From the IMG/VR virus record IMGVR_UViG_3300027734_002590, positions 37,663 to 101,662 of that record: a stretch of DNA of 64,000 nucleotides; one strand, given 5' to 3'. Source of the stretch: a virus. Shown here piece after piece: positions 11,719 to 11,815 of this stretch (its first letter is position 1; every line of letters begins with the position of its first letter). Made by a program: the position numbers and the translations under genes. The notes beneath the pieces were generated by a model. It had not been told where the DNA came from. It did not search any database and saw only the letters and a program-made list of their open reading frames with translations.

Positions 11719-11815
11719 TGGTACGGCTGGGAGGTTTCGAACCTCCAAAGGCGATGACTAAGTCGATGCCCCGTCCTGCTTAACGCAGAGGTCTGCCTAT
11801 TCCACTTACAGCCGC
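11719..11815 (-). ncRNA. aberrant tRNA-like RNA (Leu-like D/T arms, non-canonical anticodon arm)
   Basis: Acceptor GCGGCTG/CAGCCGT-ACCA, T arm GGAGG-TTCGAAA-CCTCC, arm CTGC-GTTAA-GCAG, extra arm of about 28 nt. Confidence 0.75.

Follow-up and report, generated by a model that had tools for sequence, protein, structure and literature searches.

What use is the body of a transfer RNA (tRNA) to a virus if it reads no codon? The question is raised by an element of 97 nucleotides (nt) on the minus strand of a 64,000-nt window (the whole stretch of DNA analysed here, positions 37,663 to 101,662 of IMG/VR virus record IMGVR_UViG_3300027734_002590). The element occupies window positions 11719-11815, and the record from which the window is taken measures 101.6 kilobases (kb) and is rated 28% complete. 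From a comparison across 24 distinct homologues, we conclude that the element is almost certainly a real, selected tRNA mimic that does not decode; as to its use, we tentatively favour a decoy for tRNA-directed host defences over several rival readings that are weighed below.

Read on the minus strand, the element runs GCGGCUG-UA-AGUGGAAUAGGCAGACCU-CUGCGUUAAGCAG-GACG-GGGCAUCGACUUAGUCAUCGCCU-UU-GGAGGUUCGAAACCUCC-CAGCCGU-A-CCA, and every part that a first-pass annotation of this DNA had listed (acceptor stem, A73-CCA, T arm, leucine-like D region, hairpin and long extra arm) is present on that strand. The 5′ strand of the acceptor stem, GCGGCUG (nt 1-7; 11809-11815), pairs with CAGCCGU (nt 87-93; 11723-11729) over 7 base pairs (bp), G1.U72 included; the 3′ strand, the discriminator A73 (11722) and an encoded CCA (11719-11721) together make up positions 11719-11729. 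The D arm (nt 10-27; 11789-11806) has a loop of leucine type, GGAAUAGGCAGA, as judged against the tRNA-Leu genes of the window and Escherichia coli leuV, and the D region, GUGGAAUAGGCAGAC, is near the D arm of the window's own tRNA-Leu(taa). At the position of the anticodon arm stands a hairpin, CUGC-GUUAA-GCAG (nt 28-40; 11776-11788). It is followed by an oversized extra arm (nt 45-67; 11749-11771), GGGGC-AUC-GAC-UUA-GUC-AUC-GCCUU, which is built of an outer helix, a 3x3 internal loop, an inner helix and a triloop, and whose core, GAC-UUA-GUC-A, is nt 52-61 (11755-11764). The T arm, GGAGG-UUCGAAA-CCUCC, is nt 70-86 (11730-11746). The 7-bp acceptor stem, the 5-bp T stem and a UUCRA T loop are the features of a canonical tRNA that the 24 members keep.

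The tRNA finders, whose use the first-pass annotation had proposed as a check, do not recognise it. ARAGORN called 30 tRNAs in the window, the element not among them, and no transfer-messenger RNA (tmRNA); the Rfam tRNA model (RF00005) gave 23.0 bits against a gathering score of 29, aligning the acceptor stem and T arm alone. Folding the single sequence gives the same helices, with an energy that is not significant alone (z = -1.77). Because the fold energy is unremarkable and the tRNA finders fail, the window by itself does not settle whether this is a gene or the wreck of one.

The 24 distinct homologues (88-114 nt, from phage and metagenome contigs) all come from metagenome assemblies and were gathered by four search routes. 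The first was synteny, with the divergently transcribed methyltransferase that adjoins the element as the query: it gave two loci, their methyltransferases 86-87% identical, with the element at the same place in both. The second, a pattern joining the extra-arm core to the start of the T arm, found 11 loci in viral contigs, 7 of them real members, and 42 loci in metagenome contigs, 19 of which were read as family members or their copies; its 7 matches among 185,579 genomes of bacteria and archaea include no family member. The third, a pattern of the T arm and the 3′ strand of the acceptor stem in which the extra arm was not used, yielded 15 loci, 10 of them real (8 distinct sequences, two with an inverted inner helix); the fourth, in which the middle pair of the inner helix could be any, brought in a subgroup whose acceptor stem differs. 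These routes bear on how conservation is to be read: the search patterns fix part of the T arm in all members and imposed GACUUAGUCA in 15 of them; GACTTAGTCA was required by the route-2 patterns, so that its invariance there is by construction; and it is only for the three members supplied by synteny that the invariance of U47/U48, G49, G50 and UUC does not depend on the patterns.

A covariance model, R1, built from the first 21 members, returns the window's element at exactly the coordinates above (93.5 bits, E 9e-25), and scores members at 75-114 bits, against 58.2 bits or less for any true tRNA. Each of five phage records, including one that is 93% complete, holds exactly one strong match (93-114 bits). 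The element is thus kept across phages whose neighbouring protein is 86-87% identical, and also across more distant phages. An exact search of viral contigs with 28 nt of the T arm and 3′ end found no match; among 50,697 phage records, the one blastn match to the element is 31 nt long, at E 0.3, and lies in a Bacillus phage tRNA-Tyr. A 341-nt query for cultured relatives matched tRNA-Thr genes only, and a tblastn search with the phage's Hsp70 brought up no relative, the records matched being of host-like DnaK.

The proposed structure is paired throughout this family. Over 24 members and 24 pairs, 99.5% of 572 pair cells are standard pairs, and compensatory changes affect 12 of the 24 pairs (45 cells); these counts were made on a model-based alignment fitted to the structure, and are hence biased towards it. 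None of 500 column shuffles reached the observed covariation, and pairing falls to 30-47% when the 3′ partners are slid by 1-3 columns. Five of the six helices show compensation: the acceptor stem in five of seven pairs, with every cell paired; the base of the hairpin at the anticodon position in one of two (U-A to C-G in 5 members, the C-G pair being invariant); the outer helix of the extra arm in three of four and its inner helix in one of three (A-U to U-A in 5/24 members); and the T stem, likewise fully paired, in two of five, with an invariant UUC.A in the loop of an arm that is partly pattern-fixed. The D stem has none: A10-U27 and G11-C26 never vary, and the third pair is mismatched in three of the 24, the window's element included. 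An RNAalifold run that started from a MAFFT alignment of 21 members, not fitted to the structure, independently arrived at the acceptor and T stems and at the two helices of the extra arm; of the 21 pairs that it predicted, 8 are compensated, and it draws the D region otherwise (pairs 11-22 and 12-21). Since the D stem lacks compensation and RNAalifold differs there, the D arm rests on its likeness to tRNA-Leu and not on covariation.

The hairpin at the anticodon position behaves quite differently from an anticodon arm. Its length is anything from 10 nt (CUC-GGAA-GAG in L036) to about 36 nt (L005); alignment across members is possible for the two basal pairs only, and the loops of 3-7 nt are unrelated (UUU, GGAA, UAUA, CACUACA and others). 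The window's version is the second shortest, with a GUUAA loop that has no counterpart elsewhere, and can be drawn with 4 bp and a 5-nt loop or with 3 bp and a 7-nt loop with G33; neither is the canonical arm of 5 bp and a 7-nt loop with U33. There is no conserved anticodon loop to carry a leucine anticodon (NAG or NAA), and an anticodon for a stop codon, UUA, occurs in the window's loop and in the 7-nt loop AAUUAAA of L041 and in no other member. Because the hairpin has no conserved length or loop among the 24 homologues, the UUA within the window's GUUAA is incidental and decoding, ochre suppression included, is excluded. The first-pass annotation had suggested a non-decoding tRNA mimic, had thought an ochre suppressor less likely, and had held that random decay without covariation among homologues would count against its proposal; the covariation that it asked for has now been looked for, and the homologues show paired, compensated helices around a hairpin that no codon constrains.

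Conservation lies instead in the extra arm (23-25 nt), whose plan is an outer helix of 4-5 pairs, a 3x3 internal loop, a 3-bp inner helix, a UUA triloop and an invariant A. The internal loop is 2x3 or 3x1 in three members and almost never Watson-Crick (mostly A.C and C.A), and the pairs of the inner helix are G-C, then A-U or U-A, then C-G. C-UUA-G was present in all nine of the distinct members found without the motif (three by synteny, the rest by the T-arm and acceptor pattern). A scan for GAC-NNN-GTC, with the triloop left free, gave at least 119 loci, and every family member among the matches listed had UUA. In its topology, too, the arm resembles a class II variable arm, with linkers of 4 nt on one flank and 1-3 nt on the other; the variable hairpin, like an anticodon arm, directly abuts the D stem.

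We considered whether the extra arm might be a disguised anticodon arm, with a 7-nt loop CUUAGNC or ACUUAGU, and rejected this: the flanks covary, and the outer helix is in register with the triloop. As the flanking A..U changes to U..A in 5/24 members, CUUAG closes a triloop and is not part of a 7-nt anticodon loop. Nor did a base-pairing target stand out, since the window has 7 occurrences of GACTTAGTCA (with at most one mismatch) where 3.85 would be expected, and 10 of 100 shuffles reach 7. The window's extra arm (11749-11771, minus strand) shares CAUCGACUU, a 9-mer, and the 7-mer GUCAUCG with the variable arm of E. coli tyrT (L093:639-723, minus strand). Its two halves are identical at 9 of 11 positions, as if an arm of tRNA-Tyr type had been duplicated in tandem; such a duplication is one idea for its origin, and the identity mostly follows from the GNC stems.

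The element also has its own promoter. A -10 box, TATAAT (11823-11828, minus strand), ends 7 nt before nt 1, and a -35 box, TTGCTT (11846-11851, minus strand), lies 17 nt upstream of it. An exact TATAAT ending 6-7 nt before nt 1 is found in 17/24 members, most of the others having one-base variants (CATAAT, TATACT, TATAGT); TTG at the -35 spacing recurs in most members, and the L218/L241 subgroup has a perfect TTGACA-17-TATAAT. A generic promoter scan of the window did not list the element's -10 box. Judged from these boxes, a promoter of sigma-70 type should start transcription at or beside nt 1 and, with the start expected there at the mature 5′ end, little or no leader would be left for RNase P. 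Most canonical tRNAs of the window stand in arrays, 5-8 nt apart and without such promoters; the tRNA-Glu that is first in its array (21773-21848) has a promoter arrangement similar to that of the element. The promoter, together with 27 G.U cells in the alignment that would be A.C on the opposite strand, fixes the strand as minus.

Several features point to a class II tRNA of leucine type, in keeping with the "Leu-type" label that the D loop had been given at first sight. Under R1, the best-scoring true tRNAs are tRNA-Leu: a phage tRNA-Leu(CAG) reaches 58.2 bits, the window's own score 43.7 (caa), 38.2 (tag) and 33.6 (taa), and E. coli tRNA-Leu scores 43-45 against 31 for tRNA-Tyr. L028 and the window's tRNA-Leu(caa) have one and the same D loop (AAAUUGGCAAA), and that of L025 differs from E. 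coli leuV at 1 of 11 positions. A73 is present in 24/24 members, each of which was found at least once by a pattern ending before A73, and this invariance stands beside a 1:72 pair that varies (G-C in 10, G.U in 9, A-U in 5). Around it, U8, the A at the A14/A15 position, U48, G19 and the T-loop UUC.A are invariant, the T-arm bases being pattern-fixed, and G18 is replaced by A in 5/24 members.

These details make leucylation by leucyl-tRNA synthetase (LeuRS) plausible, because LeuRS identity bases are present in the sequence. The determinants given in a published account are A73, U8-A14, A15-U48, G18-U55 and G19-C56, and the same account describes the anticodon arm as dispensable for leucylation and needed for editing, and an enlarged variable arm as lowering the kcat and affinity of the Aquifex enzyme (PMC2377443). 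Two things weigh against chargeability: the extra arm is well beyond the normal length of a tRNA-Leu variable arm, and six of the 24 members lack an encoded CCA (it is encoded in 18). Two of these six adjoin tRNA-Thr and tRNA-Leu genes that do encode CCA, which suggests that these two members would need the host's CCA-adding enzyme. An E. coli-type LeuRS may differ in the length of variable arm that it tolerates.

The tRNA-Leu genes of the window are themselves uneven: tRNA-Leu(UAG) (21523-21599, minus strand, 77 nt) and tRNA-Leu(CAA) (20146-20225, minus strand, 80 nt) have short, class-I-like variable regions, and tRNA-Leu(UAA) (16606-16692) has a normal long variable arm. A tRNA-Ile(UAU) gene (22949-23038, minus strand, 90 nt; Rfam 45.5 bits) has a long extra arm with a small palindromic hairpin, which is odd for class I. 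Elsewhere, L075:347-430 (plus strand) is an 84-nt tRNA-like gene with a GCGGCUG acceptor, a CAG anticodon loop, an irregular D region and a short variable region, scoring 38.3 bits under R1.

We propose, at a probability of roughly 0.35, that the mimic acts against a host defence or toxin directed at tRNA, either as a decoy or by competitive inhibition, and that the extra arm is its bait. The tRNA 3′-end enzymes of the host would mature the RNA, adding CCA where it is not encoded; the decoding centre of the ribosome could not use it; and it might then accumulate as a look-alike, to be taken for a class II tRNA by a tRNA-binding protein. RNA mimics are an established form of phage counter-defence, with pseudo-ToxI and RNA anti-CRISPRs as decoys of this kind. 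Outside the tRNA core, no part but the extra arm is invariant in sequence; the likeness of this arm to that of tyrT lends the decoy slight support, the other members differing at those positions; and the fact that a non-decoding RNA can be made in quantity without miscoding suggests the same use. Published accounts describe nucleases that cut the variable arm of class II tRNAs, namely Septu and the PtuAB of retron-Eco7, acting on tRNA-Tyr (PMC13096335, PMC11555353), and a phage that overexpresses the rescuing tRNA from a strong promoter (PMC11555353). The window has a tRNA-Tyr gene of its own (23708-23796, minus strand; Rfam 30.4 bits against 29), with an odd D arm and a variable region unlike that of E. 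coli tRNA-Tyr, which could matter if variable-arm nucleases are at play.

Several points weigh against a decoy. In the published retron-Eco7 work, rescue was lost once the anticodon of the phage's tRNA-Tyr had been changed, and its authors conclude that decoding, not titration, is needed there (PMC11555353). Bait for a variable-arm nuclease has no obvious need for an invariant A73 or a D loop of leucine type, which suggests that charging fits these better. The triloop arm is unlike the variable arms of the window's tRNA-Leu, tRNA-Ser and tRNA-Tyr (which are phage tRNAs, not those of the host), and unlike those of the tRNA-Leu genes that adjoin L010, L039 and L046. Part of the apparent invariance, in the T arm and in the GACUUAGUCA of 15 members, stems from the search patterns. 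Two metatranscriptome runs gave no contig over the element and are uninformative either way, the contigs obtained covering only the tRNA-Thr of other organisms and parts of neighbouring genes.

If the charging signals are what selection sees, the RNA may instead be a leucyl carrier to which the ribosome is blind: LeuRS would charge it, it would donate the aminoacyl group to a transfer outside the ribosome, and the extra arm would be the handle for a transferase; in a variant, it could be a sink that alters Leu-tRNA or uncharged-tRNA signalling. We think this unlikely, but worth keeping in view. The constancy of A73 in 24/24 members beside a freely changing 1:72 pair, the invariance of the published LeuRS determinants (G18 as above) in an RNA whose missing anticodon arm is dispensable for leucylation (PMC2377443), and the CCA encoded in 18 of 24 are all what a carrier would show. 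tRNA-Leu is also among the few types of tRNA that can be charged after loss of the anticodon, and a possible pathway is at hand in the host Leu/Phe-tRNA-protein transferase feeding ClpS, which the phage encodes. Nevertheless, L/F-transferase, FemAB-type transferase, class Ia synthetase and CCA-adding enzyme were each found in none of the five phage records, the 93%-complete one included, as were reverse transcriptase and RtcB; this absence is weak evidence for four of the records, because those four are fragments. ClpS occurs in three of the five, the window's included, and is absent from the 93%-complete genome that carries the element, so that we dropped it as a necessary partner. The effect of the larger variable arm on the Aquifex enzyme and the need of editing for the anticodon arm, as published (PMC2377443), also speak against a carrier, as do the six members without an encoded CCA, two of them next to tRNA-Thr and tRNA-Leu genes that encode it.

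A second reading, in our view also rather unlikely, is that the RNA is a scaffold for a phage ribonucleoprotein or regulator, with the triloop arm binding a phage protein or titrating RNase P, the CCA enzyme, elongation factor EF-Tu or LeuRS. The tRNA body would give it stability and processing by host enzymes, and the extra arm has the look of a protein site, with its invariant triloop and closing pair, the invariant A 3′ of the inner helix and the 3x3 loop (mostly C.A), on a body that otherwise tolerates change as long as pairing is kept. The viral tRNA-like RNAs (vtRNAs) of murine gammaherpesvirus 68 are likewise processed and not charged. However, no neighbouring protein gene is conserved, and a scaffold leaves the invariant A73 and the leucine-type details unexplained.

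We are more doubtful still of an orthogonal aminoacyl carrier, in which the triloop arm would hand the LeuRS-charged RNA to a dedicated phage enzyme that transfers or modifies the amino acid. tRNA-Sec, as a platform for making selenocysteine, would be a comparable use. In Staphylococcus, a tRNA-Gly serves as a non-proteinogenic aminoacyl donor for cell-wall bridges; it would match a carrier in being charged and used off the ribosome, but keeps a normal anticodon arm. A carrier, if this is what the element is, would make it part of a virus-encoded tRNA-dependent pathway outside translation.

The position of the element raises a further, improbable reading: that it is a cis-acting leader of a tRNA-Thr(UGU) transcript, its fold aiding transcription, processing or stability. 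In the window, tRNA-Thr(UGU) (11620-11695, minus strand) lies 23 nt downstream on the same strand, and the two probably form one transcription unit, with the promoter upstream of the element; of 19 loci scanned, 12 have a tRNA-Thr(UGU) gene that begins 3-42 nt after it on the same strand. Yet the remaining seven loci, including the 3.1-kb locus of phage record G002, have no adjacent tRNA; a RimK gene comes directly after the element in L037 (L037:75-1010) and L041 (L041:1063-1947); and in the L218 subgroup a protein-like gene follows, as seen by eye and not from the ARAGORN scan. A leader would, moreover, have no need for A73-CCA, the D-loop/T-loop elbow, which the element also keeps, or a sequence-invariant triloop. 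There is no conserved neighbouring protein gene, the flanks differing by lineage (methyltransferases, DUF5672, 2-oxoglutarate (2OG) oxygenases, RimK, deaminase or sugar enzymes). Where tRNAs adjoin, Thr(GGU), Gly(UCC) and Thr(UGU) are seen as neighbours (L086:743-1720, L043:186-1164, L032:902-1195, L031:792-1035, L039:900-1972), and the bacterial thrU-tyrU-glyT-thrT operon has the same set around tRNA-Tyr, in another order.

On the sequence comparison, this leader and the two readings that remain are contradicted wholly or in part. A decoding tRNA, whether an ochre suppressor reading with the UUA of its GUUAA loop or a tRNA-Leu(UAG) that relies on the conserved CUUAG (which is the C32-G36 string of tRNA-Leu(UAG) loops, in the window's own and in phage tRNA L230), has next to no chance: the hairpin loops of homologues are unrelated, the bases flanking CUUAG covary as a pair and so leave a 3-nt loop, the window already holds tRNAs for all 20 amino acids by ARAGORN (three tRNA-Leu among them), and most of its 78 open reading frames (ORFs), read in the standard code, have ordinary full-length Pfam matches. 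A decaying pseudogene, as failure with ARAGORN and at the Rfam threshold might suggest, is hardly tenable for a single-copy element with compensatory changes in five of six helices and a conserved promoter that is retained across diverged phages.

Two other identities were tried and set aside. The Y RNA-like YrlA family (RF02553) gave 19.5 bits against a gathering score of 69, for a match that runs over the element's T arm and the D arm of the tRNA beside it. An ORF of 47 amino acids (11712-11855) overlaps the element; we dismissed it because the lengths of the homologues, 88-114 nt, differ by non-multiples of three.

The carriers of the element are a lineage of freshwater jumbo phages, with genomes of about 330-360 kb. 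A relative with the same locus measures 331.6 kb and is 93% complete; at least half of the sampled words recur in each of seven runs from four studies, labelled freshwater metagenome or metagenome, and two of these runs may be where this DNA originated. Besides ClpS (44237-44539), the window encodes a ClpX-like ATPase (53679-54911), an Hsp70/DnaK (7532-9460) and an Hsp20 (44593-45075), as well as a RimK-type ATP-grasp ligase (33555-34481) and a ribosomal protein S21 (53462-53710). Three further regions hold CsgG with CsgF, of curli secretion (39505-41220), heme oxygenase with a ferredoxin-dependent bilin reductase (43002-44202), and a CHASE2-nucleotide cyclase (30406-32448); all of these genes are on the minus strand. 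The genes of these three regions, together with Hsp70, ClpS, the ClpX-like ATPase, RimK and S21, are strikingly host-like.

tRNA mimicry as such is already known, from tmRNA, viral tRNA-like structures (TLS) and vtRNAs; what is new here is a class II tRNA mimic that a phage encodes as a gene of its own, lacking an anticodon and bearing a conserved extra arm. No family of Rfam 15 covers the element, and full-text literature searches, limited in coverage, returned no description of such an RNA. It is like a bacterial class II tRNA-Leu in its 7-bp acceptor stem, A73, 3-bp D stem, leucine D loop, A15/U48, T arm and long arm, and unlike it in having no 5-bp, 7-nt-loop anticodon arm and an extra arm of about twice the usual length that is conserved in sequence. 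The TLS of plant-virus 3′ ends, as they are described, are also viral imitations of tRNA handled by host tRNA enzymes without an adaptor role; however, TLS and vtRNAs belong to eukaryotic viruses, and TLS are genome 3′ ends with pseudoknotted acceptors, whereas the element is a free-standing gene of a double-stranded DNA phage with a true acceptor helix.

We also compared the element with tmRNA, and rejected it as one. The tRNA-like domain of tmRNA shares with it an acceptor stem, a T arm, a D-loop analogue and CCA, and is described as having no anticodon (PMC2481249), but the element has no G3.U70 (3:70 is G-C in 23/24 members and A-U in 1/24), no pseudoknots, no ORF and no tag; family members are of 88-114 nt as against about 350 nt, the window's has 97, and neither ARAGORN nor Rfam gave a tmRNA match. 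Also comparable are the anti-defence tRNAs of phages, as reported for the tRNA-Tyr of T5 and T6 (against retron-Eco7 and Septu) and the tRNA-Lys of T5 (against PARIS), which are also phage-encoded and strongly expressed, with the variable arm of class II, the class to which the element belongs, as a point of attack (PMC13096335, PMC11555353). Those, however, are working tRNAs with anticodons, and their rescue is reported to depend on the anticodon (PMC11555353), whereas the element cannot decode.

One practical consequence is that automatic annotation will mislabel this family, as tRNA finders miss its members or assign them false anticodons. ARAGORN reads the family member in L002/L086 (L002:2837-2937, minus strand) as an implausible 101-nt tRNA-Pro(ggg), and L017:970-1061 (minus strand) as a tRNA-Arg(tcg) on the opposite strand.

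The tRNA genes of phages are usually explained by codon usage or, lately, by the replacement of host tRNAs that defence systems have destroyed. The element described here keeps the shape of a tRNA and the marks of leucine but has given up decoding, and selection has held it so across a lineage of phages. Should it act as a decoy, it would be a countermeasure to tRNA-directed immunity made of RNA alone, and could serve as a probe for such immunity among freshwater bacteria; should it be charged, LeuRS would have in it a natural, orthogonal substrate that keeps off the ribosome, of interest to tRNA biology and engineering.

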